64,000 nucleotides of DNA, taken from NCBI GenBank assembly GCA_022143435.1, contig GCA_022143435.1_3941.1; one strand, given 5' to 3'. Below are positions 5,926 to 46,168 of the stretch, one piece after another (the first letter of the stretch is position 1; each line of letters opens with the position of its first letter). The notes under the pieces are model-generated. The model was not told where the DNA came from, did no database searches, and saw only the letters and a list, made by a program, of their open reading frames with translations. Position numbers and translations under genes: made by a program. Source of the stretch: a phage.

Positions 5926-6348
5926 TTATTTCTCTCTCAGTTGGTTAAGTTTCTTTCTAGAACATTTTAAGTTTTCGGATGAAGAAAAGTCAAGTGTCTT
6001 TTCAGAACGTGGATAATAGTTCCTATCCCAAGAAGTTTCAACATCGTTAATCAGTGATGCTAGATTACACAGGTCTGTACCACTTTGCAACCTCTTTTTA
6101 AGAGAATCTAGTAAAGCAACTGTGTCTTTAGCTTTACGTCTCGCTGTAGCAACATCTTTCATATGCTCAAATACAGAGCATTTTAAGTCATCTTCATAGT
6201 CTTCAGACAACTCTATTTCATGTTGTATATCAACCATTCTCCTGTGATGGTGAGCATATTCCCGTTGAGCAGCAATGTCAAGTTCTTCCAACTTCTGCAA
6301 AGCTCTAACAAAGTCAGCTATGTCTGGGTGAACAAACATTTTCTGCAT
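5926..6348 (-). CDS. hypothetical protein
   Basis: 140-aa ORF, no motif recognised. Confidence 0.5.
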   Translation of the reverse strand: MQKMFVHPDIADFVRALQKLEELDIAAQREYAHHHRRMVDIQHEIELSEDYEDDLKCSVFEHMKDVATARRKAKDTVALLDSLKKRLQSGTDLCNLASLINDVETSWDRNYYPRSEKTLDFSSSENLKCSRKKLNQLREK

Positions 6349-6605
6349 GTAAGCCTCTTTTAAGTAGCTATTAAGTTTTAATCTTTTATCTTAACGTATT
6401 CTATACGTTATACTTTAAAGCTTTTTAAAAGCTATTAAATAATCTTTTAAGAGTTTTAAAGTATCTGTATAGTTAAACTGTTAAGTAACCTTTTAAGTAA
6501 AAACCCACTTCGCAAAGATTAACACCTTGTCAAGTGCATTGTCAACTTGCTTTTTATAATTTTTTGCAGTAATGTATGAGGTTAATGATTTTAGAGGGAG
6601 TAAAA

Positions 6606-9305
6606 ATGGAAAACGTAGATTTTAAAAACTTACATTTAGTTGGTGATACAGAAACTGATGGTTTACTCCTTGAGTTCACTAAAGTGCACGTAATGGCTTT
6701 CGCAGACTATAAATCTGACGATGAAGAGCCGCCTGTATGGGTCTTTACAGATGAGCCTATCCTCGGTCACAAGTATACCAAGTATATTAAGGGTGGCTTA
6801 CGTGAAGGTATTGAGTTTGCGTTAAAGGCAAAACGTCTTTGCATCCATAACGGTCTCGGTTATGACTGGTGGGTTTTCAATCACATTGCACCTGATTTAT
6901 GGAACTTTGATAATCCAAAGTGTAAACCGTGGAGTAATTTCTTTCAGGATTCTCTTATCCAGTCTCGTGTTCAGTGGATGGATAGACCAACTCCAAAGGG
7001 TTATAAAGGTGCTCATGGTTTGGCTGCATGGGGTGCTCGCGTTGGTGTTCGTAAGCCAGAGATTGAGCATTGGGGTGTGTGGAATGCAGAAATCTTCACT
7101 CGTGTTGTAGAAGATATCCGTATTAACGCCAAAACTAAACGGGCACTTGATAACGAGTATCTCAAGCTTAAGAAGTGTGGTATAGACACTTATGAGACTT
7201 ACATGCGAGCTAAAGAAACATCTTTCTGGATGAGTCAACAGGCTATTAATGGCTGGAAAGCTGATAAAGAGCTTATGGAGTTCCATGTGAAGGAACTTGA
7301 CAAATTGACTAATGAGCTTGCTTCAGAGGTTGAACCACATCTACCTCCAACTATTAAGACCAAAGGTAAAGTCACTGGAGAAGAGTTTGCAAAAGCTTGG
7401 AATGAGTATGTTGAAGCATTCGGTCATGCAGATGGACTGAAGAGAATTACCAAGTACCCTAAGACAAAGTACCGTCAGCAGGTACGTAACGGTGAGATGC
7501 AGACATACGAAATCAAGCCATTTGGTAAGCCAACTACAAAGATTTTTAACATTGAAAAGAGAAATTGCTATACACCAACCAACTCTGTAACTGGTGAAGA
7601 GTACAAGGAAGGTTTTGTAGCAATGAAGGATGCTCGTGCAATTTGCAATGAGTTGAACGCAAAGATTGGTAAGAAATGCAAAGACTGGAAGCCAGTAAAA
7701 ACAGTCAAAACTGTGAAGTACTATAACAGTCATGTTGTTAACCACTTTGAACTTGAGTCAAGTCGCTACACAGGTTTGATTGATGCACCATATACACCAA
7801 TTGAGTTCGAAGTTTCTCGCATGACTCAGGTAGCAGTTGTTAAAGACTACTTGAAATCAGTTGGTTGGATTCCAGATGACTGGAATTACAAGAAAGACTC
7901 AGATGGTCGCCCTGTCAAAGTTTGTCGTTTCAAAGACAATAAAAAGATGATTACAAAGCATCCTAAGTGGCAGGAAATGGTTGAGCGGTGTGGTTTGAAT
8001 TATGTTGAACATGAAGGTGTACAGTACATCGAGCATAACTGGTCTGTGAAGAAATACACAGATTTGCTTGAGCCTTGCTTAATCCGTACTTCACCAAAAC
8101 TTACTGAATCATCTTATGATACGATTGAAGGTGAGCTTGGACAGAAGATTGCTAAGTACTATACTTTGATGCACAGACGCAGAACTATTGAGAACTCAAA
8201 GGATGATGAAAAAGGTTGGTTGAACCAGATTCGTCCTGATGGTCGCCTTAGTGCTGGCGCAATGGTGTTTGGTACTTCAACTGGACGTATGACACAATAT
8301 GGTATTGTAAACGTACCGTCTGGTGCTGCTGTCTATGGGGAACCAATGAGGGCAGTGTGGATTTGTGAGGAAGGTACTAACGTTGTCTCTGTAGATATGA
8401 ACTCAGCCCAGCTAGTTCTTCTTTGTAACTTTATGGGTGATAAAGAGTTCACCAAAGCGGTAACGCAAGGTAAAGAAGAGATTGAGTTTATTCGTCAAGA
8501 AGATGGACGCTATTACTGCAAACATTTTGATGAGTACCTCAACCCAGAGATTGATAAGTACCTTCGCTATGACTCTGAGAATGACCTGTACGTTGTCTAT
8601 TCAGGGACTGATGCACATACACTGAACAGTATCTACTTTAGCTTGAACGATGAGCAGGACATCTTGACTTGTCGAGCTACTCAGGATGAGAATCTTCTTC
8701 ATGAGATTAGCAAAGGTCGTAAGAAAGCTAAGAATGGTATCTATGCACTACTGTTTGGTGCAGGTGATGAGAAGTTTGCTAAAACTATTAAGGCAGCCAC
8801 TACTCAGGAAGGTGCATTAACTAAACAGACTTACTTTGTGCGTTTGCCAAAGATTAAGAAACTATTAGATAACTTGGAAGCTGACTACAAAGCAACTAAA
8901 AAGGCACTTGAAGAGGTGTTTGGTAAGACCGCTGCAATCTCTAAAGGGGGTTTTGTAAAGGTTGCTGGAGCTTGGTTGTGGTGTAAATCTCCACATAAGT
9001 TGTTGAATTATTTGCTCATGGGTTCGGAAAGTCAGATTCAGAACGAGGCAATTAACCTTGCTTGCCGTCGTATGATTGACGAAGGTTTGATGAAGTTGAA
9101 CGGTCGCAAACCAGCTATAGGTGCTCGTTTATTGTGCTCCTATCACGACGAGACAAGTTGGGAATGTCCAGAAAGTATGACGGCAGAGGTGAAGGCTGTC
9201 ACTGATTGGTATTACGGGCAAGCCTCTAAGAACTTAGGACTAAAGAGTGAAACACTGGTAACTGGTACTGGTAAGGTTGGTAAGTCGTGGTTGGAAGTGC
9301 ATTAA
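6606..9305 (+). CDS. DNA polymerase, family A, with 3'-5' exonuclease domain
   Basis: Exo I motif VGDTETDGL; polymerase motif C YHDETSWECP; start moved to ATG 6606 (AGAGGGA RBS) rather than track start 6576. Confidence 0.9.
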   Translation: MENVDFKNLHLVGDTETDGLLLEFTKVHVMAFADYKSDDEEPPVWVFTDEPILGHKYTKYIKGGLREGIEFALKAKRLCIHNGLGYDWWVFNHIAPDLWNFDNPKCKPWSNFFQDSLIQSRVQWMDRPTPKGYKGAHGLAAWGARVGVRKPEIEHWGVWNAEIFTRVVEDIRINAKTKRALDNEYLKLKKCGIDTYETYMRAKETSFWMSQQAINGWKADKELMEFHVKELDKLTNELASEVEPHLPPTIKTKGKVTGEEFAKAWNEYVEAFGHADGLKRITKYPKTKYRQQVRNGEMQTYEIKPFGKPTTKIFNIEKRNCYTPTNSVTGEEYKEGFVAMKDARAICNELNAKIGKKCKDWKPVKTVKTVKYYNSHVVNHFELESSRYTGLIDAPYTPIEFEVSRMTQVAVVKDYLKSVGWIPDDWNYKKDSDGRPVKVCRFKDNKKMITKHPKWQEMVERCGLNYVEHEGVQYIEHNWSVKKYTDLLEPCLIRTSPKLTESSYDTIEGELGQKIAKYYTLMHRRRTIENSKDDEKGWLNQIRPDGRLSAGAMVFGTSTGRMTQYGIVNVPSGAAVYGEPMRAVWICEEGTNVVSVDMNSAQLVLLCNFMGDKEFTKAVTQGKEEIEFIRQEDGRYYCKHFDEYLNPEIDKYLRYDSENDLYVVYSGTDAHTLNSIYFSLNDEQDILTCRATQDENLLHEISKGRKKAKNGIYALLFGAGDEKFAKTIKAATTQEGALTKQTYFVRLPKIKKLLDNLEADYKATKKALEEVFGKTAAISKGGFVKVAGAWLWCKSPHKLLNYLLMGSESQIQNEAINLACRRMIDEGLMKLNGRKPAIGARLLCSYHDETSWECPESMTAEVKAVTDWYYGQASKNLGLKSETLVTGTGKVGKSWLEVH

Positions 9306-9315
9306 TGGTGACAAA

Positions 9316-9843
9316 ATGATTACACAAGAACGTTTAAAGGAACTACTACACTATGACCCCGAAACAGGGGTCTTTACTTGGCTTCGTAGGGAGGGTGACT
9401 CAAGGGCTGTTAAAGTCTTTAATAGTCGGTACGCAGGACAGGTAGCGGGGAGCATCCAGATTGACTCAACTGGTCATAATCAGATTACTATCTATTTTGA
9501 CAAGAAAGCACATAAAGCGCACAGACTCGCATGGCTGTACGTGTATGGTAGGCTGCCGAAAGGTGTTATTGACCATGTTAATGGGGACTCCCTTGATAAC
9601 AGGATTGTAAACTTAAGAGAAGCAGATGACTACCAAAGTGCTTGGAATAAAAGCAAACTATCCACCAATAAATCAGGCTATAAGGGTGTAAGCCTGAAGA
9701 AGAAGTCTGGTAGGTGGGTTGCGCAAATAAGCTATAAAGGTAAAAAGATGTCATTAGGCTACTATGACACACCAGAAGAGGCCCATAAAGCTTACTGTGA
9801 AGCTGCTGTAAAACTCCACGGAGAGTTTGCAAAACTAAGTTGA
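9316..9843 (+). CDS. HNH homing endonuclease with AP2-type DNA-binding domain
   Basis: HNH core HRLAWLYVYGRLPKGVIDHVNGDSLDNRIVNL; AP2-like SGYKGVSLKKKSGRWVAQISYKGKKMSLGYYDTPEEA; starts 11 nt after the polymerase stop. Confidence 0.8.
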   Translation: MITQERLKELLHYDPETGVFTWLRREGDSRAVKVFNSRYAGQVAGSIQIDSTGHNQITIYFDKKAHKAHRLAWLYVYGRLPKGVIDHVNGDSLDNRIVNLREADDYQSAWNKSKLSTNKSGYKGVSLKKKSGRWVAQISYKGKKMSLGYYDTPEEAHKAYCEAAVKLHGEFAKLS

Positions 9844-9894
9844 CAAGGTGCTCAGGGAAGAGTACCTTATACTATATCTTGTATAGGAGGGCTT

Positions 9895-10104
9895 ATGAGC
9901 CACCGTGGAAGAACCCATGCAGCGATGATGAAAGGTGCTTCAAAGGAGACTATCAAAAATCGTAAGCAGAAGTTGTTTGAGAGGATGAACAGGTTAATTG
10001 ACAATTCATCTCTTTCAGGTTCTGAGAAGGTTTTCTTGAAAGGTAATCTGAAAAGCATTGCACAAGAACTTATTGACATTGAGTATTGGAGACATCAAAA
10101 ATGA
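9895..10104 (+). CDS. hypothetical protein
   Basis: 69-aa ORF with RBS GGAGGG. Confidence 0.45.
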   Translation: MSHRGRTHAAMMKGASKETIKNRKQKLFERMNRLIDNSSLSGSEKVFLKGNLKSIAQELIDIEYWRHQK

Positions 10105-10313
10105 CACTTGCAGACGTTATTCAGCAACTTCATGATAACTGCTACACTCCAGAGTTAATTCAGGAGATGTCCATTGTAGTCATGCCTAGCAAGTTCGTAA
10201 AAACCTTTAACAACGACGCTTTAAGGTCTACACACATCCTTATCGTTGACGGTAAGATTGCAAAAGACCGTACTGGAGTACTCAAAGGTGAACGTATTGA
10301 CATTAACTTTTAA
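10101..10313 (+). CDS. hypothetical protein
   Basis: ATG 10101 with GGAG upstream (track start 10086 is TTG). Confidence 0.45.
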   Translation: MTLADVIQQLHDNCYTPELIQEMSIVVMPSKFVKTFNNDALRSTHILIVDGKIAKDRTGVLKGERIDINF

Positions 10314-10330
10314 GTATTGGAGAAATCAAA

Positions 10331-10543
10331 ATGACTTATGAAGAAGCTGTTGAAGCAATGAAGCAGGGTAAGAAAGTTCGTAACGAGAACTTCACACCTG
10401 ATGAGTTCTTTGAAATGAAAGACGGAAAGATTGTCTGTGAAATGGGTTACCCAATGGCTAAATGGTATCGTGGACTTGATTGGCAGAAAACTGGATGGAG
10501 TGTTGTAAAGGACTCTCCAAAAGCTTCTGATTTATTCTTTTAA
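10331..10543 (+). CDS. DUF2829-like small protein (same family as Thoeris anti-defence Tad2)
   Basis: N-terminus MTYEEAVEAMKQGKKVRNENF matches the DUF2829 signature as I recall it; conserved Trp near C-terminus; GGAG RBS. Confidence 0.5.
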   Translation: MTYEEAVEAMKQGKKVRNENFTPDEFFEMKDGKIVCEMGYPMAKWYRGLDWQKTGWSVVKDSPKASDLFF

Positions 10544-10552
10544 GGAAATACT

Positions 10553-10759
10553 ATGCAAGTTTTAGTAAACTATATCTACCGTTATGATGTTATCCACTCA
10601 ACCAATACAGTTGCTCAACGCAACCCTATTGTACCACGAGAAGGTGAGTGGGTTCGTATTGATGGTTGGATTTATACTGTAGAGAATGTTATCCACAAAT
10701 TTGATGTGGGTGATGATACTCAAGTGATTGATGTAGAGATTGGTGGGAAGAGAAAATGA
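10553..10759 (+). CDS. hypothetical protein
   Basis: 68-aa ORF in operon. Confidence 0.45.
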   Translation: MQVLVNYIYRYDVIHSTNTVAQRNPIVPREGEWVRIDGWIYTVENVIHKFDVGDDTQVIDVEIGGKRK

Positions 10760-11859
10760 CAATTCTGTACAAACAAAATAAAGATGGCTCTTTTAACGTC
10801 TGGTCATGCGTTGCTGTAGGTGACAAAGTGGTTACCACGTATGGCAAAGAAAATGGCAAGATGATGTTTGAAGAGTACACAGCAGAACCAAAAAACATCG
10901 GCAAAAAGAATGAGCGTAACGCTGAACAGCAAGCTCTCTTTGAAGTTGCTGCTAAATACAAGAAGCAGGTTGACCGTAAAGGCTATGCTTATTCAAAATC
11001 TGCTGCACAGGAAGTTGAGAAGGTTGGTGTACAGCTTGCACATGATGCTTCCAAGGTTAGTCATGCAAAGTATCTGAAATTCCCTGCTGATGCTCAACCA
11101 AAACTTGACGGTGTTCGTTGCAGGATTTCTCGTCATCAAAGTCTTGGTGGAATGTTTACAGCTTATTCTCGTGAGAATACGGTTTACAACATCCCCGAAG
11201 AATTGATTCCAGATATAACTATGATGCTCAAACTTCATAAAGATGTGGATGAGTTTGACGGTGAGATTTATGCTCATGGTTGGGACTTGGAAGATATTGT
11301 ATCCATGATTAAGAATGCTGACAATCCAGACCGTCACCTACTTAAATTCTACTGGTATGATATCTGCGATAATTCTAAATCTTGGCCTGAGCGTCGTGAA
11401 ATCATTGATAACTCACCAATCGTTGAACTCGGTGATGCTTGCAGGGTTGTACCTGTTCAAACTATCCGTGTTAACTCTTGGGAAGAGTTCGACAAAGCCC
11501 ATGATAATTGGGTTAAGCTGAAGTTTGAAGGGGCTATGTACCGTTCAATCTCTGAAGAATCTTTCTACGAGTGTAGTCACCGTTCATACTTCTTAATCAA
11601 GCATAAGAAGATGCACACTGAAGAGTTTAAAGTAACTGGTGTGAAAACTGATAAACGTGGTCATGGTAAGTTTGTTGTAGAGACTCTTCCTAACGTCTTT
11701 GTAGATGTTTCATGGAAAACTACCCATGAGAAGAAGAAGTATCTTGCTGAACATCCTGAAGAGTTTATCGGGAAACCTTTGACGGTTCAGTTCCAGAAGA
11801 TGACTCGTAGGGGGTCTTTACAGTTCCCTGTTGGGTTAGTTATCAGAGATTATGAATAA
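10756..11859 (+). CDS. DNA ligase, ATP-dependent type
   Basis: Nucleotidyltransferase motif I KLDGVRC; further ligase-like motifs EGAMYRS, LIKHKK. Confidence 0.6.
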   Translation: MTILYKQNKDGSFNVWSCVAVGDKVVTTYGKENGKMMFEEYTAEPKNIGKKNERNAEQQALFEVAAKYKKQVDRKGYAYSKSAAQEVEKVGVQLAHDASKVSHAKYLKFPADAQPKLDGVRCRISRHQSLGGMFTAYSRENTVYNIPEELIPDITMMLKLHKDVDEFDGEIYAHGWDLEDIVSMIKNADNPDRHLLKFYWYDICDNSKSWPERREIIDNSPIVELGDACRVVPVQTIRVNSWEEFDKAHDNWVKLKFEGAMYRSISEESFYECSHRSYFLIKHKKMHTEEFKVTGVKTDKRGHGKFVVETLPNVFVDVSWKTTHEKKKYLAEHPEEFIGKPLTVQFQKMTRRGSLQFPVGLVIRDYE

Positions 11860-11865
11860 AAGTTG

Positions 11866-11893
11866 TTGACATAGAAAATTTGGTGAGTATACT
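11866..11893 (+). promoter_or_regulatory. sigma70-like promoter (TTGACA-N16-TATACT)
   Basis: Near-consensus -35/-10 read directly; points into G-rich repeat block 1. Confidence 0.5.
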
Positions 11894-11926
11894 GAGCAGC
11901 ATAAACCAACGGGTACTCACCAGCAT

Positions 11927-12215
11927 CACTTAAGAGCCTTTCTAAGAGGGTTTTTAAGTGAGGTTCGGTATGGTACAGTAGGCTCTGGCTTGGTATGGTT
12001 TGGTGATGTTCGGTGTGGTACGGCGGTGTAAGGTATGGTATGGGTAGTTAGTCTCAGCTACATTAAAATGAGACTTACCTTTTTAAAAGGTCTTTAAAAG
12101 GGTCTTTTAATAAGGTATGGTGAGGTAGGGTTAGGCGAGGTCAGGTTTGGTAAGGTATGGGTGGATGGTAGCAGCCACGTTAAAAATCTACCAAGTTTCT
12201 AAAGAGTCTTCTGTT
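11927..12215. repeat. G-rich repeat/hairpin block 1 (GGTNNGG tracts plus three conserved hairpin modules)
   Basis: Shares about 80-bp near-identical element (12032-12116 vs 13511-13590) and hairpin modules with block 2. Confidence 0.8.
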
Positions 12216-12250
12216 GAGGGTTCTTTACAAACAACTTAACAATCAACTAA

Positions 12251-12856
<606 letters not shown>

Positions 12857-12858
12857 TT

Positions 12859-13299
12859 ATGAATACAAAAGCATTAGCAGCAAAGTTTAGTTACGGTGAC
12901 ACTGTATCACATTCTGAGATGGACACCTTCTTAGGTATTGTGAAGCCAACTTATCAAGGTGACATTGTTAAGTACGAAGATGAAATGAAGGCTTATGCAC
13001 TTACACGTCTAAACCGACTTGAGAAGTTTATTGAAAAGCTTCTTAAAGAAGAGAAGATTTATCTGGTTGCTTCAATGGGTGTTGGTTATCGTGTGGTTGA
13101 ACCTAAGCATCAAGCAACTATTGCAAAACGTAAAATGTCTGGTAAGATTGGTCGTGCTTTAAAGCAAGCCACTCAAGCGATTGAGAATGTGAATACTATG
13201 GCACTTAGTCATCAAGAACGTTCACGACTGATTGAACAGCAAAACCATTTAGCTGCTATGAAAGCTAACATTAACAAGCAACGTAGAAAACCTTTCTAA
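12859..13299 (+). CDS. hypothetical protein
   Basis: 146-aa ORF adjacent to previous gene. Confidence 0.5.
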   Translation: MNTKALAAKFSYGDTVSHSEMDTFLGIVKPTYQGDIVKYEDEMKAYALTRLNRLEKFIEKLLKEEKIYLVASMGVGYRVVEPKHQATIAKRKMSGKIGRALKQATQAIENVNTMALSHQERSRLIEQQNHLAAMKANINKQRRKPF

Positions 13300-13309
13300 G
13301 TTGACTAGG

Positions 13310-13333
13310 AAGCCTCTTCGGAGGCTCCTTTTT
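13310..13333 (+). terminator. rho-independent terminator
   Basis: GAAGCCTC-TTCG-GAGGCTCC hairpin followed by TTTTT. Confidence 0.7.
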
Positions 13334-13690
13334 AAAAGGTCTTTTAAGAAGGTCTTTTAATGAGGTAAGGTGCGGTCTGGTAAGGCATGGTATGGTTGGG
13401 TGAGGTGAGGTATGGGTAGTTAATCGGAGCTACATTAAAATTCGATTACATCACTTAAAAGTCTTCTAAGAGGATTTTTAAGTGATGTTCGGTAGGGTCT
13501 GGTAGGGTGAGGTATGGGTAGTTAGTCTCAGCTACATTAAAATGAGACTTACCTTTTTAAAATGTCTTTAAAAGGGTCTTTTAACAAGGTATTGTATGGT
13601 GTAGTTTGGTTAGGTATGGTTAGGTGTGGTAAGGTAGGGTATGGAAGGATGGCAGTAGCCTTATAAAAAATCTGCCAAATAAGCTATAAA
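13330..13690. repeat. G-rich repeat/hairpin block 2
   Basis: Second copy of the modules in block 1, with compensatory base changes in hairpin stems. Confidence 0.8.
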
Positions 13691-13768
13691 ATCTGTTGAC
13701 AAGTCAGGTGTTATAGCTTATTTTTATACTCAATGTAATACAAAATTTAATATAACTTTGAGGTCATT

Positions 13769-14152
13769 ATGAAAAAGATTTTATTAGCTGCTGCAATGGT
13801 TATGGCAATGAATTTACCAGTCAATGCAACAGAACTTCCAAATGTGGACTTATCAGGTGTTCCAGAAGACACTTGCCAGATTGTAAAAGGTGTTGCTCTA
13901 GCTAATGGTGAGCTACTTAAACCAATCTCTGAAGAGTCTTTGACAGAGATGACTGATAAAGTAACTGACTATCAGTATCGTGTTCTTGCAGAGTATTTCC
14001 TGCAATCTGCAAACATTAAAGAGAAGCACCATGAAGATATTGATGTACAGGCTATGCTAAATCATCGTATCCAGTTTAAAGAAGATTTGATGCAAAAAGC
14101 TATGTATGGTGTTGAGTATTTCTTAGAAAACAGAAGCTGCACAGGTATTTGA
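13769..14152 (+). CDS. secreted/periplasmic protein, hypothetical
   Basis: Signal peptide MKKILLAAAMVMAMNLPVNA with AxA-like cleavage site. Confidence 0.55.
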   Translation: MKKILLAAAMVMAMNLPVNATELPNVDLSGVPEDTCQIVKGVALANGELLKPISEESLTEMTDKVTDYQYRVLAEYFLQSANIKEKHHEDIDVQAMLNHRIQFKEDLMQKAMYGVEYFLENRSCTGI

Positions 14153-41258: not shown

Positions 41259-41334
41259 TGGAGAATCCGAAGGGACTCGAACCCTTATAAACCTGTTTTG
41301 CAGACAGGCACATATCCATTTCTGTCACGGATTC
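41259..41334 (-). tRNA. tRNA-Cys (GCA)
   Basis: Manual cloverleaf; 7-bp acceptor stem; CCA encoded. Confidence 0.65.
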
Positions 41335-41339
41335 AAAAT

Positions 41340-41432
41340 TGGAGGAAGATACCAGACTTGAACTGGTACACCGATTTCTCAGCTACTGGCAGTTTAGCAA
41401 ACTGCTCCCTTACCTTTTAGGGTTAATCTTCC
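41340..41432 (-). tRNA. tRNA-Ser (GCT), class II
   Basis: Long variable arm; anticodon loop TTGCTAA. Confidence 0.6.
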
Positions 41433-41433
41433 A

Positions 41434-42168
41434 TTATTTCTGTAATGCGCTCTTCATTTCTGGTGTTGCAATAGTGTCAATTACACCAGTTTTACAGGCA
41501 TCATCAAACCAGTCTGGTAAGATACCTGCTAAGAACCCATTGATATTCGTTTTAAGGTACTCTGCAATAAGGGCAGCTTCTTCTTCAATCATCTGCACAA
41601 CTTCATCTGCATAAGCTGTAATCTTTGAGATACCTTCATTAATCTTACTGACAGCTTGGTTAGCTAAATCAGAAACAGTATCAAGACCCTTGTCAATAGC
41701 GTCTTGTAAGTCACTTAATACATTGTTAACACTCTCTAGTGTACTGTTAATCATATCAATAGCTTTTTGACCATATTCTGTAGCAACACCCATAATACCA
41801 CTGAACGGTGTACAACCAACTTGTTCTCCTGCTGCACCCATAACATTGGAATATCCCTTTGCTACCTGCATACGTGATGAAAACTCATCAATAGATTTTT
41901 GACCGTAGTCTGTCAGGGTCTTAGTAGTTGCTGTAGTGCTTGTAAGGCTTGTTGTAAAGCTGTTTAGAAGGACTGTTGTAAGTCCAGCAGCAACAAGTTT
42001 CTCCTGCATTGTAGGGTCTGTTACAGAACTAATAGAGCTTACAAGTGATGTAGAAGCAGCTACGGTTCCACCGAGAACTGCTGCACCAGTAATAAGTGGG
42101 TTAGAAAACCCTTTACCGGTTTTTAAGAGATTAAAAATCTCCTTACCTTGTTCTGTCATCTCTTTCAT
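41434..42168 (-). CDS. hypothetical protein embedded in tRNA array
   Basis: Start moved to ATG 42168 (AGGTG upstream) because the track start overlaps tRNA-Phe. Confidence 0.4.
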   Translation of the reverse strand: MKEMTEQGKEIFNLLKTGKGFSNPLITGAAVLGGTVAASTSLVSSISSVTDPTMQEKLVAAGLTTVLLNSFTTSLTSTTATTKTLTDYGQKSIDEFSSRMQVAKGYSNVMGAAGEQVGCTPFSGIMGVATEYGQKAIDMINSTLESVNNVLSDLQDAIDKGLDTVSDLANQAVSKINEGISKITAYADEVVQMIEEEAALIAEYLKTNINGFLAGILPDWFDDACKTGVIDTIATPEMKSALQK

Positions 42169-42184
42169 TAAGCACCTTTGAAAT

Positions 42185-42260
42185 TGGTAGTCCAGTGGGA
42201 TTTGAACCCTCTTCTCATGTTTTTCAGACACGCGCTTTAACCATATAAGCTACTTGGACT
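42185..42260 (-). tRNA. tRNA-Phe (GAA)
   Basis: Manual cloverleaf; anticodon loop CTGAAAA. Confidence 0.6.
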
Positions 42261-42266
42261 ATAAAT

Positions 42267-42342
42267 TGGGGTGACCTACGGGATTTGAACCCGTATAGAC
42301 CATGTTCACAGCATGGGTCATTACCATTTATGATAAGGCCAC
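42267..42342 (-). tRNA. tRNA-His (GTG)
   Basis: Anticodon loop CTGTGAA. Confidence 0.6.
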
Positions 42343-42377
42343 ATTTAAGGACTCTCGTAAGAACCCTTAGAAGTGGC

Positions 42378-42448
42378 AGCGGCATAAGGATTTGAACCTT
42401 AATAGGACAGCTTCAGAGACTGTTGCATTGCCAGTTATGCTATACCGC
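42378..42448 (-). tRNA. tRNA-Gln (CTG)
   Basis: Anticodon loop CTCTGAA; CCA not encoded. Confidence 0.5.
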
Positions 42449-42454
42449 TAAATT

Positions 42455-42533
42455 TGGTACTCCATATCGGATTCGAACCGATACATAACACAGATTTTAA
42501 GTCTGGCCTCTCTGCCAATTGGAGTAATGGAGC
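42455..42533 (-). tRNA. tRNA with anticodon TAA (Leu by anticodon, short variable loop)
   Basis: Good acceptor and T arms; 4-bp anticodon stem; class-I-like length. Confidence 0.45.
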
Positions 42534-42535
42534 AT

Positions 42536-42611
42536 TGGCGGGGGATGTTGGAATTGAACCAACTTCTTCGATTTCAAAGACCGAGGTTTTAACCTTGTAA
42601 ACTAATCCCCT
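42536..42611 (-). tRNA. tRNA-Gln (TTG)
   Basis: Anticodon loop CTTTGAA. Confidence 0.5.
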
Positions 42612-42619
42612 TTAAATCT

Positions 42620-43177
42620 TTACTTTCTTAGTGGATGAATAAAGAATGCCAACATAACTCTTTCCCTTGAGAATGCTCTTTCTTCTGGGACAACACTTTT
42701 TAGCTTCCACCCAATATAAATTCTCCAGTAGAACTGTTTACCAAAGATTTTAATTGATGGGATAAAAGCGAATAATCCCCAAGCATTGCTGTTCCACATT
42801 AGGAGATAACCTGTCTGATTATCTTCAGGGTTAGAACTTACGTTGATATTACCTTTCCACTTAGTAACATCTTTTACATCTCTTCCTAATACATGGTAAG
42901 AGAAGTTATAAGCTTTGTTTCTCCAGAGCCATCCGACTCTTTGCATGTAGACACCTAGTTTACCAATCCATCTAATATTAGCCCATCTTTTAACGTGACC
43001 TTCATCACCATCAATTGGGTTGTCATATGTCTCCATCCATCTGAATCCGAAAGGTAAGTGTCCTTTCTTCTCACTGTAGAATGGAACTACAAAAGGTGCT
43101 AAGATAACTGCTAAGATTGCTGCAAATGGCTCTAACAAAGCTAAGAAAATCCATGAAGCATACTTCAAATATCTCAT
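42620..43177 (-). CDS. membrane protein embedded in tRNA array
   Basis: N-terminal hydrophobic segment WIFLALLEPFAAILAVILAPFVVPF; Trp-rich. Confidence 0.45.
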   Translation of the reverse strand: MRYLKYASWIFLALLEPFAAILAVILAPFVVPFYSEKKGHLPFGFRWMETYDNPIDGDEGHVKRWANIRWIGKLGVYMQRVGWLWRNKAYNFSYHVLGRDVKDVTKWKGNINVSSNPEDNQTGYLLMWNSNAWGLFAFIPSIKIFGKQFYWRIYIGWKLKSVVPEERAFSRERVMLAFFIHPLRK

Positions 43178-43196
43178 CTAAATAGCCTCTTTAAAT

Positions 43197-43272
43197 TGGC
43201 GCAGGATAAGGGATTCGAACCCCTATTAACAGCTTCGTAGACTGTTGCTCTATCCATTTGAACTAATCCTGC
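43197..43272 (-). tRNA. tRNA-Arg (ACG)
   Basis: Anticodon loop CTACGAA. Confidence 0.65.
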
Positions 43273-43277
43273 AAAAT

Positions 43278-43355
43278 TGGTGTTCCAAGACGGATTCGAA
43301 CCGTCACTAGTACAAGGTTTGAGCTTGCATCCTCTGCCAATTGGGATACTGGAAC
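43278..43355 (-). tRNA. tRNA with anticodon CAA (Leu by anticodon, short variable loop)
   Basis: 5-bp anticodon stem, loop CTCAAAC. Confidence 0.45.
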
Positions 43356-43356
43356 A

Positions 43357-43431
43357 TGGTACTCACTAAAGGACTTGAACCTTTTTCTTCATCTTGTAAG
43401 GGTGGTGTTTTACCATATAAACTAAGCGAGT
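43357..43431 (-). tRNA. tRNA-like, anticodon TAC (Val?), weak anticodon stem
   Basis: Good acceptor/D/T arms; anticodon stem has two C-A mismatches. Confidence 0.4.
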
Positions 43432-43527
43432 GTGAAAGAGGTCTGAAGTTGTGCCGCTAACTCAACTCCGTGGAATTTGTTACGGTCTTCAGTTGACTCA
43501 AAGCGGTCTTTCACTTGACCTCTAAAT
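43432..43527 (-). ncRNA. tRNA-sized structured element, not a canonical cloverleaf
   Basis: Perfect 7-bp terminal stem AGAGGTC/GACCTCT enclosing about 73 nt; no standard T-loop. Confidence 0.25.
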
Positions 43528-43603
43528 TGGTGCTCCCACAAGGATTCGAACCCTGATAAGTTGCTTACAAGGCAACCGTAATAGCCAATTATACGATAGG
43601 AGC
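43528..43603 (-). tRNA. tRNA-Thr (TGT)
   Basis: Anticodon loop CTTGTAA. Confidence 0.6.
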
Positions 43604-43610
43604 ATTAATT

Positions 43611-43685
43611 TGGAGCATCCAGAGGGAATCGAACCCTCAACCTCAGTTTGGAAGACTGTAATTTTCCCGTTTAAACTATGGATGC
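43611..43685 (-). tRNA. tRNA-Gly (TCC)
   Basis: Anticodon loop CTTCCAA. Confidence 0.6.
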
Positions 43686-43691
43686 ACTAAT

Positions 43692-43767
43692 TGGTGGAGT
43701 CACTGAGAATTGAACTCAGTTCCCAAGTTTGCAAAACTCGAATTTTAACCATATAAACTATGACCCC
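43692..43767 (-). tRNA. tRNA-Ala (TGC)
   Basis: Anticodon loop TTTGCAA. Confidence 0.6.
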
Positions 43768-43773
43768 ATTTTT

Positions 43774-43849
43774 TGGTACAGGTGGAGGGAATTGAACCCA
43801 TCGTCTTACTGATTAAGAGTCAGCCGCATAACCATTTTGCTACACCTGC
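43774..43849 (-). tRNA. tRNA-Lys (CTT)
   Basis: Anticodon loop CTCTTAA; register slightly ambiguous. Confidence 0.45.
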
Positions 43850-43856
43850 ATTAATT

Positions 43857-43934
43857 TGGTAGGAGACAAGGGATTCGAACCCTCAAACACCAACTTCTAA
43901 GGATGGTAGGTTTACCAATTACCGTCAATCTCCC
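43857..43934 (-). tRNA. tRNA with anticodon TAG (Leu by anticodon)
   Basis: Anticodon loop CTTAGAA, 4/5 stem pairs. Confidence 0.4.
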
Positions 43935-44190
43935 ATTAAATCTTTTTAGAGAACTTCTAAGAACCTAAGCAACAAGGTTCCACAACAAGCTGTAATAACC
44001 TTAGAAGCCCTCTAAAAAGACCTAAAAAGGTCTTTGCATAGTCTTGTTTAATCCGGTGACTAGAACCTTTGGAGAGCTTGATATTATCTCTTCTCCGTGA
44101 CACCTACTAGGTGCTTTACTGTGCGTGTACGACAATACACTAGGGATACCAAAGCAACATCCGAATGAAGCTTGGCTTTAAATCTTATTA

Positions 44191-44269
44191 GGCGGTAAGT
44201 AAAGGAGTCGAACCCTCACCGTATCTCTACAGTGGCAACTGTTTTCAAGACAGTTTGGCTACCATTAGC
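44191..44269 (-). tRNA. tRNA-Ser (TGA), class II
   Basis: Anticodon stem ACTGT/ACAGT, loop CTTGAAA, long variable arm. Confidence 0.55.
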
Positions 44270-44293
44270 CGCTACCTACCCCTAATAAGACTT

Positions 44294-44376
44294 TGGCATG
44301 GGACGGAGGAGTTGAACCCCTTTGAAACGGTTTTGGAGGCCGTTGCTCATGCCTTAGAGTCTTAACATCGCCCCAT
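44294..44376 (-). tRNA. tRNA-like with Trp-type anticodon loop CTCCAAA (CCA)
   Basis: Anticodon arm matches E. coli tRNA-Trp loop; D region about 7 nt too long for a standard cloverleaf. Confidence 0.35.
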
Positions 44377-44518
44377 ACTATAATTCGAAGCTTACCGTAT
44401 TATCTCAACACTGTAAAGCCCCTTCTCAGATTATTTACATGTTCTGGAAAACATGAGATACAGACCACCTCCCTACAGGAAGACCCGCTTAGGTCGTCTA
44501 AGTAATCTGCTAACTAAT

Positions 44519-44595
44519 TGGTACACCCTACAGGATTCGAACCTGTAACTAACGATTTAGAAGACCGTTGCTCTATCCAATTGAACTAAGGGTGC
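44519..44595 (-). tRNA. tRNA-Arg (TCT)
   Basis: Anticodon loop CTTCTAA. Confidence 0.6.
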
Positions 44596-44798
44596 ATTAA
44601 TCTTTAAAGACTCTCTTAGAAAGCCCTTAAAGATGCCCACCTTATTAATCATACCGTGGGCTAGTACGCCAAATTCTTTGATGAGGGATTGGAAGACCTC
44701 ACTGGTGTTTAGCCTATCAAGCTACTGCCAGAAAAACATTGTCGTTTGCATTTATTTTAAATTTGCAAAATAGACGCTACGCAACGAAAACTAAGGTT

Positions 44799-44827
44799 AC
44801 TATAAAGTAGTCACATCTCAATGTCAA
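44799..44827 (-). promoter_or_regulatory. sigma70-like promoter inside tRNA array (TTGACA-N17-TATAGT)
   Basis: Read on minus strand; would drive the tRNAs at lower coordinates. Confidence 0.5.
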
Positions 44828-44842
44828 CAACTTTATTGAAAT

Positions 44843-44917
44843 TGGTTGTAGGTGAGGGTATCGAACCCTCTTCTAACGGTTATCAGCCGTTTGCATTACC
44901 ATTTATGCTAACCCACA
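44843..44917 (-). tRNA. tRNA-Ile (GAT)
   Basis: Anticodon loop CTGATAA. Confidence 0.65.
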
Positions 44918-44919
44918 AT

Positions 44920-44996
44920 TGGAGGTTCAGATGGGAATCGAACCCACATTCATAGGGCTTATGAGACCCTTGCATTACCTTATCTGCGACTGAACC
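44920..44996 (-). tRNA. tRNA-Met (CAT)
   Basis: Anticodon loop CTCATAA. Confidence 0.6.
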
Positions 44997-45000
44997 ATTT

Positions 45001-45076
45001 TGGTAGAAGTGGAGGGATTCGAACCCATCGCCTGTCAGATTAAAAGTCTGCCGCATCACCATTCTGCTACACTTCC
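45001..45076 (-). tRNA. tRNA-Lys (TTT)
   Basis: Anticodon loop CTTTTAA. Confidence 0.55.
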
Positions 45077-45081
45077 ATTAA

Positions 45082-45229
45082 ATTATCTTTGTAGATAAGC
45101 TACCCAGACTTGCTTAAGGTCTGTAGCGATGTGCCTTTTTGGGTTTAAATCTAGAATTTACCCTTTCACCCTTTGTGGTCGCATACTCACAGGTAAGCTT
45201 AATAACTTATCTACAAAGATAATTACCAG
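45082..45229. repeat. 18-bp inverted repeat (ATTATCTTTGTAGATAAG ... CTTATCTACAAAGATAAT) flanking about 110 bp
   Basis: Read directly; inside a tRNA-free gap of the array. Confidence 0.7.
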
Positions 45230-45504
45230 ACCGTTGTTTATCATCTTAAGTGCTACCATTACACCAACTCGACATCTGCCGAGTGAAGGAATCGAACCTT
45301 CGCCTTTTCTTTACCGAGAAATAGATTGTTTAAGTTTTGCTGTAAACGGTCTTCTGTAAATTTGTTGAGCCAGACCAAGTTTTAGATTTTCAAAATTAAA
45401 TTGGCTTGAAATTTCATACGTTCTTGCTGTATTTGGTCTTCTGCTCCTTTAAAGGATACTCGTAAGAACCCTTTAAGGGAGGGGCTAAATAGCCCTCTCA
45501 AAAT

Positions 45505-45583
45505 TGGCGGTTACGAAGGGATTTGAACCCTCATCATCTCCCGTGACAGGGGAGTATTTTAACCAAATTAAACTACATAACCT
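45505..45583 (-). tRNA. tRNA-Asp (GTC)
   Basis: Anticodon stem CTCCC/GGGAG, loop CTGTCAC. Confidence 0.65.
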
Positions 45584-45587
45584 TTAT

Positions 45588-45675
45588 TGGTGTGCCGTGT
45601 AGGAGTCGAACCTACCGAGTCTCAATGACAAGGGATTTACAGTCCCCACCGCTACCATCTACGGGATAACGACAC
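45588..45675 (-). tRNA. tRNA-Tyr (GTA), class II
   Basis: Anticodon loop CTGTAAA with long variable arm. Confidence 0.6.
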
Positions 45676-45684
45676 ATTTAAATT

Positions 45685-45761
45685 TGGCGGTTAGTCAGGG
45701 ATTCGAACCCTGTGCCATTCGCTTAACAGGCTACCGCACATACCTTATGTGCTTCCTAACC
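45685..45761 (-). tRNA. tRNA-Asn (GTT), imperfect anticodon stem
   Basis: Anticodon loop CTGTTAA; good acceptor and T arms. Confidence 0.45.
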
Positions 45762-45838
45762 TTAATACATTGCCAGACCGTGTTTTTTCTTTTATCCGCA
45801 AAAAGTAGTTTGTTGCTGAATACGGTCTTCTGCAAAAT

Positions 45839-45915
45839 TGGAGGCGGGTGCAGGAGTCGAACCTGCCGATACCATGCTAATGAGACATGTGAGACGCCCT
45901 TTCTCTATACCCGCA
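45839..45915 (-). tRNA. tRNA with anticodon CAT (second Met, initiator or Ile-lysidine type)
   Basis: Anticodon loop CTCATTA. Confidence 0.5.
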
Positions 45916-46006
45916 ATTCTTAATGACCAGACCAAATCTCTTCTTTGTCCGATTTCGTGTCAGATGAATAAGATTAAACTTGCTGTAATTGGTCTTCTGT
46001 CAAAAC

Positions 46007-46084
46007 TGGCGTTCCAGAAGGGATTTGAACCCTCAAATATCCACTTTGAAAGAGTGGTGACTTTACCATTTTGTCTACTGGAAC
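46007..46084 (-). tRNA. tRNA-Glu (TTC)
   Basis: Anticodon stem CCACT/AGTGG, loop CTTTCAA. Confidence 0.65.
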
Positions 46085-46091
46085 ATTAATT

Positions 46092-46168
46092 TGGTCTCTG
46101 TTGGAGGACTTGAACCTCCGGCCTTACCGTCCCAAACGGAACGCTCTACCAATCTGAGCTAAACAGAG
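46092..46168 (-). tRNA. tRNA-Pro (TGG)
   Basis: Canonical D arm GCTCAGATTGGTAGAGC; anticodon loop TTTGGGA. Confidence 0.65.

Follow-up and report, generated by a model that had tools for sequence, protein, structure and literature searches.

A 70-amino-acid protein of a FelixO1-like coliphage with the Tad2 (DUF2829) core fold, without the insertion and most of the gcADPR contacts of characterised Tad2 sponges

Between an HNH endonuclease gene and a DNA ligase gene of a FelixO1-like phage lies a small ORF whose 70-aa product resembles DUF2829, the family of the Thoeris anti-defence sponge Tad2. The locus raises two questions: does so small a protein belong to the Tad2 family, and does it sequester the cyclic ADP-ribose signals of Thoeris, as a sequence-only reading of this DNA had proposed? 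The window referred to below is the whole stretch of 64,000 nt that was analysed (contig GCA_022143435.1_3941.1). It comes from a FelixO1-like myovirus (Ounavirinae, Suspvirus-like coliphage), and its best DNA match was Escherichia phage phiSUSP1 (Ounavirinae, Suspvirus), with ~90% identity. An array of 26 tRNA genes, which is typical of FelixO1-like phages, was found on the minus strand at 41259-46168. The analysis below answers yes to the question of a Tad2-fold homolog, and it leaves a Thoeris sponge in the canonical sense doubtful.

The ORF at 10331..10543 (+) is a real gene, more than a chance ORF. According to the ORF list and the sequence, it has an ATG start and, with the TAA stop included, encodes 70 aa (MTYEEAVEAMKQGKKVRNENFTPDEFFEMKDGKIVCEMGYPMAKWYRGLDWQKTGWSVVKDSPKASDLFF); a Shine-Dalgarno-like GGAG could be read from the sequence at 10319..10322 (+), 8 nt 5' of the ATG. 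Both the N-terminus that had been quoted for it and the stretch DWQKTGWSVV, now placed at residues 50-59, agreed with the translation. The Tad2-like fold core corresponds to residues 1-60 (10331..10510, +), and the conserved domain stops at ...GWSVV, residue 59. The C-terminal tail (residues 61-70, DSPKASDLFF; 10511..10540, +) is subfamily-specific, lies outside the conserved domain, is missing from most family members and had a mean pLDDT of 54. Comparison with the phiSUSP1 ortholog showed 21 nucleotide differences, 12 synonymous and 9 non-synonymous, with a dN/dS of 0.13. Over its full length the protein belongs to PHROG 3474 (E 1.6e-33), and it matched PHROG 22208 as well (E 3.1e-18), both of them families without functional annotation. 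An exhaustive HMMER profile search of 1.84 billion representative proteins returned 267 representative clusters at E<=1e-3, and the family was present in 458 phage genome records by tblastn; the window itself contained only one Tad2-like ORF.

These relatives form a coherent clade of proteins mostly 58-70 aa long, called the mini clade here, with the consensus MT..EA..AM..G.KV.H.YFT..EY..M..G.I..E.GY.....F........GW.I. and with A6, G13, F21, E25, E37, G39, Y40, G55 and W56 as near-invariant residues.

The gene had been described as sitting in a run of four tiny ORFs between the HNH endonuclease and the ligase, and the ORF list and Pfam showed that this is correct, with all of them on the same strand. 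The upstream gene (9277-9843) encodes an HNH_3 + AP2 homing endonuclease (Pfam E 8.6e-15 and 6.1e-13); it follows directly, with a slight overlap, on the gene of a 909-aa DNA polymerase, and its orthologs annotated in relatives start about 13 codons downstream of the TTG chosen by the ORF finder. Then come small ORF A (9895-10104, +, from the ORF list), neighbour B (10101..10313, +; PHROG 4230, without known function), the mini-Tad2 gene, neighbour D (10553..10759, +; PHROG 4427, also without known function) and the ATP-dependent DNA ligase gene (10756-11859, +), whose start is overlapped by the stop of D. For neighbour B the ORF finder gave a TTG at 10086; in phiSUSP1, REP8 and Bas63 its orthologs begin with the ATG that corresponds to 10101 (MTLADVIQQ...), so that B and the end of ORF A (stop 10104) probably share 4 nt. 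No recognised anti-defence gene was found adjoining the mini-Tad2 gene. In phiSUSP1 (L001 4550-4735) and Bas63 (L008 2248-2466) a small CxxC...CxxC zinc-ribbon-like ORF precedes the ligase, and this ORF is absent from the window. The ligase gene is followed by an intergenic gap of ~390 nt (11860-12253), which may be a transcription unit boundary. The gap holds the best sigma-70-like match of the scanned region (TTGACA-16-TATACT, 11/12, 11866-11893), and the promoter and terminator scan of 6000-14000 gave nothing above shuffled expectation.

Neighbours B and D are the left and right borders of a variable insertion slot (window 10313-10553; REP8 L007 1304-1738; Bas63 L008 1399-2251; phiSUSP1 L001 3895-4735). 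In Felixounavirus REP8 the genes A, B and D are present and the mini-Tad2 cassette is absent, with the stop of B only 10 nt from the start of D. The slot of the BASEL phage Bas63 is occupied by two unrelated ORFs, one encoding a 58-aa basic protein and the other a 78-aa lipoprotein-like protein (MWKAVIVLSVILLSGC...), and phiSUSP1 has the mini-Tad2 cassette there, plus an extra zinc-ribbon-like ORF. Both junctions of the cassette carry TTTTAAG, and its last codons together with the downstream RBS resemble the 3' end of gene B in REP8. At the DNA level the mini-Tad2 gene was present in 44 phage records, versus 234 for neighbour D. The family also occurs in T5-like Epseptimavirus, ~9 kb from the left end, in T4-like Jiaodavirus, between nrdG/glutaredoxin and gp55, in Phapecoctavirus as a 142-aa fusion, and in 54-kb Erwinia/Pantoea phages; in these unrelated lytic phages its members always lie among runs of small hypothetical ORFs. 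A profile search of genome contigs from 185,579 species-representative bacterial genomes found no member of the close subfamily, and hence none in the prophages of those genomes. These data establish an accessory, horizontally shared distribution. A small gene that is patchy in close relatives and common to unrelated phages is distributed in the manner of a counter-defence gene, and we regard this as suggestive, since such a distribution is not specific to counter-defence.

The sole Pfam match of the 70-aa protein was PF11195 Tad2-like (formerly DUF2829). The match reached 23.4 bits (E 8.7e-5), which falls under the curated gathering threshold of 25 bits, and it spanned residues 1-41, corresponding to profile positions 1-32 of 73. 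NCBIfam gave no match to the protein. About a quarter of the clade (25/91 members) matched PF11195 at E<0.01, and the precomputed PF11195 label was found on none of the clade members returned by the homologous-protein search. As canonical reference, SPO1 Tad2 (gp34.65) was located in the SPO1 genome, PF11195-labelled homologs were gathered, and 99 of them were aligned. Comparison of the 91 mini-clade sequences with these 99 canonical sequences by hhalign gave 93.2% probability and an E-value of 2.9e-7; the 66 aligned columns span both families from end to end and leave a single large gap, opposite SPO1 Tad2 residues ~36-63. When the clade profile was searched against PDB sequences, the best four matches were Tad2 proteins (8v3e, 9eib ModTad2, 8wjd SptTad2 and 8kbi AcrIIA7/HgmTad2); their E-values were marginal (0.15-0.28), and each match consisted of two collinear pieces, the α1/GKKV motif and the C-terminal DW.IVE motif. 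The 70-aa protein as a single phmmer query against PDB reached no Tad2. That search returned LIM-homeodomain proteins over residues 20-45 (E 0.03-0.1), which were judged to be chance matches because they fade with the broad clade profile while the Tad2 matches rise. So the membership in DUF2829/Tad2 that had been proposed from a sequence pattern stands as remote, superfamily-level homology, which is established by hhalign, and the Pfam assignment itself stays below threshold and covers only the N-terminal part.

The same relationship appeared in the predicted structure. An AF2 model built on close homologs had a mean pLDDT of 83.7 and contained helix α1 (3-11), strands β1 (16-18), β2 (27-30) and β3 (33-36), a short helix (50-53) and a last strand (56-58), with a two-residue turn joining β2 and β3. 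A comparison of the predicted structure with Tad2 had been proposed as a check, and in Foldseek against PDB the first seven matches were all SPO1 Tad2 and SptTad2 chains, with TMq of 0.52-0.65 and probability up to 0.98; past these seven chains TMq dropped to about 0.2. In the model an N-terminal helix is followed by an antiparallel β-sheet that can be superposed on solved Tad2 structures. Among predicted viral structures (BFVD), the best matches were uncharacterised proteins of the mini clade, and some relatives of 60-63 aa there are already named DUF2829 or Tad2-like in UniProt. We regard the Tad2 core fold, as modelled, as established for the 70-aa protein, and the sequence and structure comparisons together make it a true though remote member of the Tad2 fold superfamily. 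Neither the fold nor the superfamily is new; what is new is a distinct insertion-less clade, with invariant residues of its own, that is widespread in lytic enterobacterial phages.

Some members of the family are longer than the 70-aa protein. In rV5-like phages/Phapecoctavirus (P0019, P0026, P0028, P0037, P0043, P0142, and tuntematon, L006 3992-4420) the mini domain is joined to an uncharacterised extension of ~80-160 aa, which ends in a recurrent, highly basic KGKGHNKLQKRKKK tail, (Y/H)KGKGHNKL(Q/K)K(R/G)KKK, that could serve for nucleic-acid binding or as a targeting signal. P0082 and P0135 end in a SEC-C zinc-binding motif (CPCGSGKKFKNC; Pfam PF02810, best E 1.9e-8). A Pfam search of 48 longer fused family members found only PF11195 (9 proteins) and SEC-C (2 proteins), and no informative enzymatic fusion. 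Natural tandem duplications of the mini domain were seen in P0070, P0131, P0161 and P0162, and in P0162 the mini domain is joined to a more canonical DUF2829 domain (GKTIAR...DILASDWIIV). Judged from sequence, the tandem duplications suggest that the mini domain may work as a multimer; the AF2 model of the P0070 relative, made from a single sequence, had a pLDDT of 35.6.

Whether the protein could bind a Thoeris signal depends on how far its pocket resembles that of characterised Tad2 proteins. SPO1 Tad2 (89 aa; PDB 8SMF/8SMG/8WJE) is the founding Thoeris anti-defence sponge. It forms V-shaped dimers via helix α2 and strand β2, two dimers interlock along α1 to give a homotetramer, and the gcADPR pocket lies between non-dimeric protomers, lined by W25, N26, I63, T65, D67, H71, W73, S76, T78 and D79 (10.1101/2023.05.01.538930). 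The window protein shares with it an N-terminal helix with G-K-K-V, a β-sheet core and a C-terminal D/G-W-x-[IV]-V strand, whereas identity is only about 20%, the SPO1 residues ~36-59 (α2 and loops, the V-dimer interface) are deleted, and the window phage is a FelixO1-like phage of a Gram-negative host. According to hhalign, N18, F21, T22 and D24 of the window protein correspond to R22, W25, N26 and K28 of SPO1 Tad2; C36, M38, A43 and W45 to T65, D67, H71 and W73; G48, L49 and D50 to S76, T78 and D79; and G55 and W56 to D84 and W85. Around W45 the register can be fixed only to within one or two positions, since HMMER and hhalign disagree there. Against this alignment F21, W45, D50 and W56 stand out as the counterparts of W25, W73, D79 and W85, whereas R22->N, N26->T, K28->D, S76->G and T78->L are replaced. 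Of the 11 residues that are invariant in the canonical Tad2 alignment, three (W73, D79, W85) are identical in the window protein and W25->F is conservative, while N26, S76 and Q77 are lost, K28 has become D/E and D84 has become G.

The pattern was similar across the 91 clade members. Position 21 is F in 86 of them, and an aromatic residue at 45-47 (the W73 region) is likewise kept in 86; an acidic residue at 49 or 50 (D79) occurs in 61, and 48/49 vary. At the K28 equivalent, 59/91 carry D or E. Position 22 is T or S in 59/91, and A, L, C, M or another residue in the rest; Asn, which binds the diphosphate in characterised Tad2, was found there in 0/91. Helix α1, the interface that makes the Tad2 gcADPR pocket, retains the A..[LM]..G pattern. 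The clade-invariant residues E25, E37 and G39-Y40, with E37 between the equivalents of T65 and D67, fall in or beside the Tad2 pocket loops, which suggests a conserved site in the same place with different chemistry.

The insertion between β2 and β3 that carries α2 is absent as well, with a deletion of ~25 residues in hhalign, and therefore neither the second pocket nor the V-dimer interface can be present in the form that is known. This matters for the other characterised members too: in HgmTad2/AcrIIA7 (PDB 8KBI) cyclic dinucleotides are bound via a 41-residue insertion (32-72) that is wholly missing in the window protein, and the pocket for them is separate and built almost entirely from the β2-β5 insertion (PMC10680739); ModTad2 (PDB 9EIB) binds His-ADPR, with cUMP bound at the intra-dimer interface. 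In HgmTad2 the mutants W21A/N22A and S90A/T92A/D93A lost gcADPR binding (PMC10680739), and the residues validated in this way are not conserved in the window protein. The gcADPR-pocket set W25/N26 and S76/T78/D79 (SPO1 numbering) reads F21/T22 and G48/L49/D50. It is established that the 70-aa protein has lost the insertion and that most of its gcADPR-contact residues are replaced, and the criteria of the HgmTad2 paper (PMC10680739) would probably class the mini clade as non-binding. The proposal that the protein is a Thoeris cyclic ADP-ribose sponge was not supported by these comparisons: the insertion is missing, the W/N and S/T/D residues of HgmTad2 have become F/T and G/L/D, and the diphosphate-binding Asn is kept in none of the 91 clade members.

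The assay record of other Tad2 homologs bears on how much can be concluded from such divergence. Table S2 of Hadary et al. contains 16 Tad2 homologs, which scored at most 13.6 bits on the clade HMM, compared with 110.8 for the 70-aa protein, so none of them belongs to the mini clade. Tad2_80 (73 aa), which is also without the insertion and is the nearest tested homolog in architecture, inhibited none of seven systems, and neither did Tad2_69, _78, _81 and _84 (10.1101/2025.08.24.671296). For Tad2_79, which is about as far from the canonical profile as the window protein, plaque assays validated activity against Thoeris of types I and IV and against one CBASS (E. albertii) (10.1101/2025.08.24.671296). 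On the canonical HMM, Tad2_79 scored 10.0 bits, the 70-aa protein 11.7 and Tad2_80 15.9, while Tad2_80 and Tad2_79 lie outside the mini clade, with at most 9.6 bits on its HMM. Since Tad2_80 is inactive and Tad2_79 is active, homology alone does not predict activity; distance from the canonical profile does not predict the assay outcome, and divergence does not preclude function. As a parallel, naturally short homologs of TadIV-1 are inactive (PMC13243611); TadIV-1 (T4 Vs.3) itself was checked and is unrelated to the mini clade. The sequence motifs of the clade were absent from the supplements of Hadary et al. and of the structural-modelling preprint, Table S1 being covered in part, and a literature search returned no paper on PHROG 3474 and nothing relevant for DUF2829 or for Felix/BASEL with Tad2.

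The mechanism that we consider most likely for the protein is Tad2-like. The ORF encodes a minimal member of the Tad2 (DUF2829) fold, in which the N-terminal helix packs on a small antiparallel sheet and a tight D-G hairpin takes the place of the 25-40-residue β2-β3 insertion of characterised Tad2. The protomers would come together along the conserved helix α1, and the pocket between subunits would be formed by the β1-β2 loop (F21/T22), the β3-β4 loop (E37-G39-Y40), the aromatic residue at 45-46 and D50. Such a pocket may hold a small host-derived molecule, most plausibly a nucleotide-based immune signal, and its capture would blunt a signalling defence system. Oligomerisation through α1, the holding of a small ligand at the loop cluster and the use in counter-defence are what we infer from the comparisons above. 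Because the pocket chemistry differs and the second (cyclic-dinucleotide/cUMP) pocket is gone, the ligand is probably not bound as Tad2 binds the 3'cADPR of type I Thoeris. A sponge-type role in anti-signalling, for whatever ligand, comes close to an even chance in our estimate without quite reaching it.

The strongest alternative is that the fold has been re-purposed for binding a protein or a nucleic acid; the module would then not be a sponge, and might for instance inhibit a host or phage protein directly or serve as its adaptor. We consider this a serious possibility, although one that we would not bet on. The residues of the canonical pocket are for the most part replaced, a Tad2 homolog that lacks the insertion showed no activity in sponge assays, and the gene is located in the replication module, with the DNA polymerase/HNH genes on one side and the ligase on the other. 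The C-terminal extensions of the family are varied, including the basic tail in rV5-like phages and the SEC-C motifs, and the conserved set (E25, E37, D/E24) is acidic, no obvious match for anionic nucleotides. However, canonical Tad2 is itself acidic and binds ribose hydroxyls by Asp side chains (10.1101/2023.05.01.538930); moreover, the conserved residues map to the ligand-pocket loops of Tad2 and not to a new surface, and no conserved neighbour points to a partner.

A bona fide type I Thoeris sponge, in which a Tad2-like oligomer would sequester 1''-3' gcADPR (3'cADPR) in the canonical pocket, appears improbable to us. The fold and homology are Tad2-like, F21, W45 and D50 align with W25, W73 and D79, three of the main ligand contacts of SPO1 Tad2, and the divergent Tad2_79 still blocks type I Thoeris. 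But the equivalents of N26, S76 and T78 are T, G and L, Asn never occurs at position 22 in the 91 clade members, and alanine mutants at the corresponding HgmTad2 positions lose gcADPR binding (PMC10680739); the dimerisation insertion is missing, and the insertion-less Tad2_80 is inactive against type I Thoeris. That the gene is a decaying, functionless remnant of a Tad2 gene is barely credible: no characterised Tad2 is as short as this protein, and many relatives can do without the gene, but this reading is contradicted by the purifying selection (dN/dS 0.13) and clade-wide conservation, with near-invariant clade-specific residues common to about 267 clusters, and the predicted fold is confident and compact and the gene is maintained in several unrelated phage lineages.

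For the sponge-type reading, the bolder form would be that the mini clade comprises the smallest phage sponges of immune signals, with a protomer of ~60 residues, an α1 dimer and a re-engineered pocket (F21, E25, E37, Y40 and the aromatic residue at 45/46) for a signal that canonical Tad2 does not bind; we hold this bolder form to be rather unlikely. If it were true, the signal could belong to an enterobacterial defence system that has no known sponge yet. Few known phage sponges are as versatile as Tad2, whose members act against Thoeris I, II and IV, CBASS and Pycsar and owe their specificity to the pocket residues and the insertion domain. Members of the mini clade are frequent among therapeutic-type lytic phages of E. 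coli, Salmonella, Klebsiella and Shigella, and all the homologs inspected were annotated as "hypothetical". If it is active, the clade would provide a minimal sponge scaffold, probably with a new ligand specificity, and would affect the success of such phages when they meet signalling defences. If it has no sponge activity, it would mark a limit past which DUF2829 or Tad2-like labels should not be taken to mean anti-Thoeris function, and such a limit matters for the automated annotation of anti-defence genes. We see in the mini clade a reasonable candidate for a sponge of new specificity, and just as much a caution about annotation transfer.
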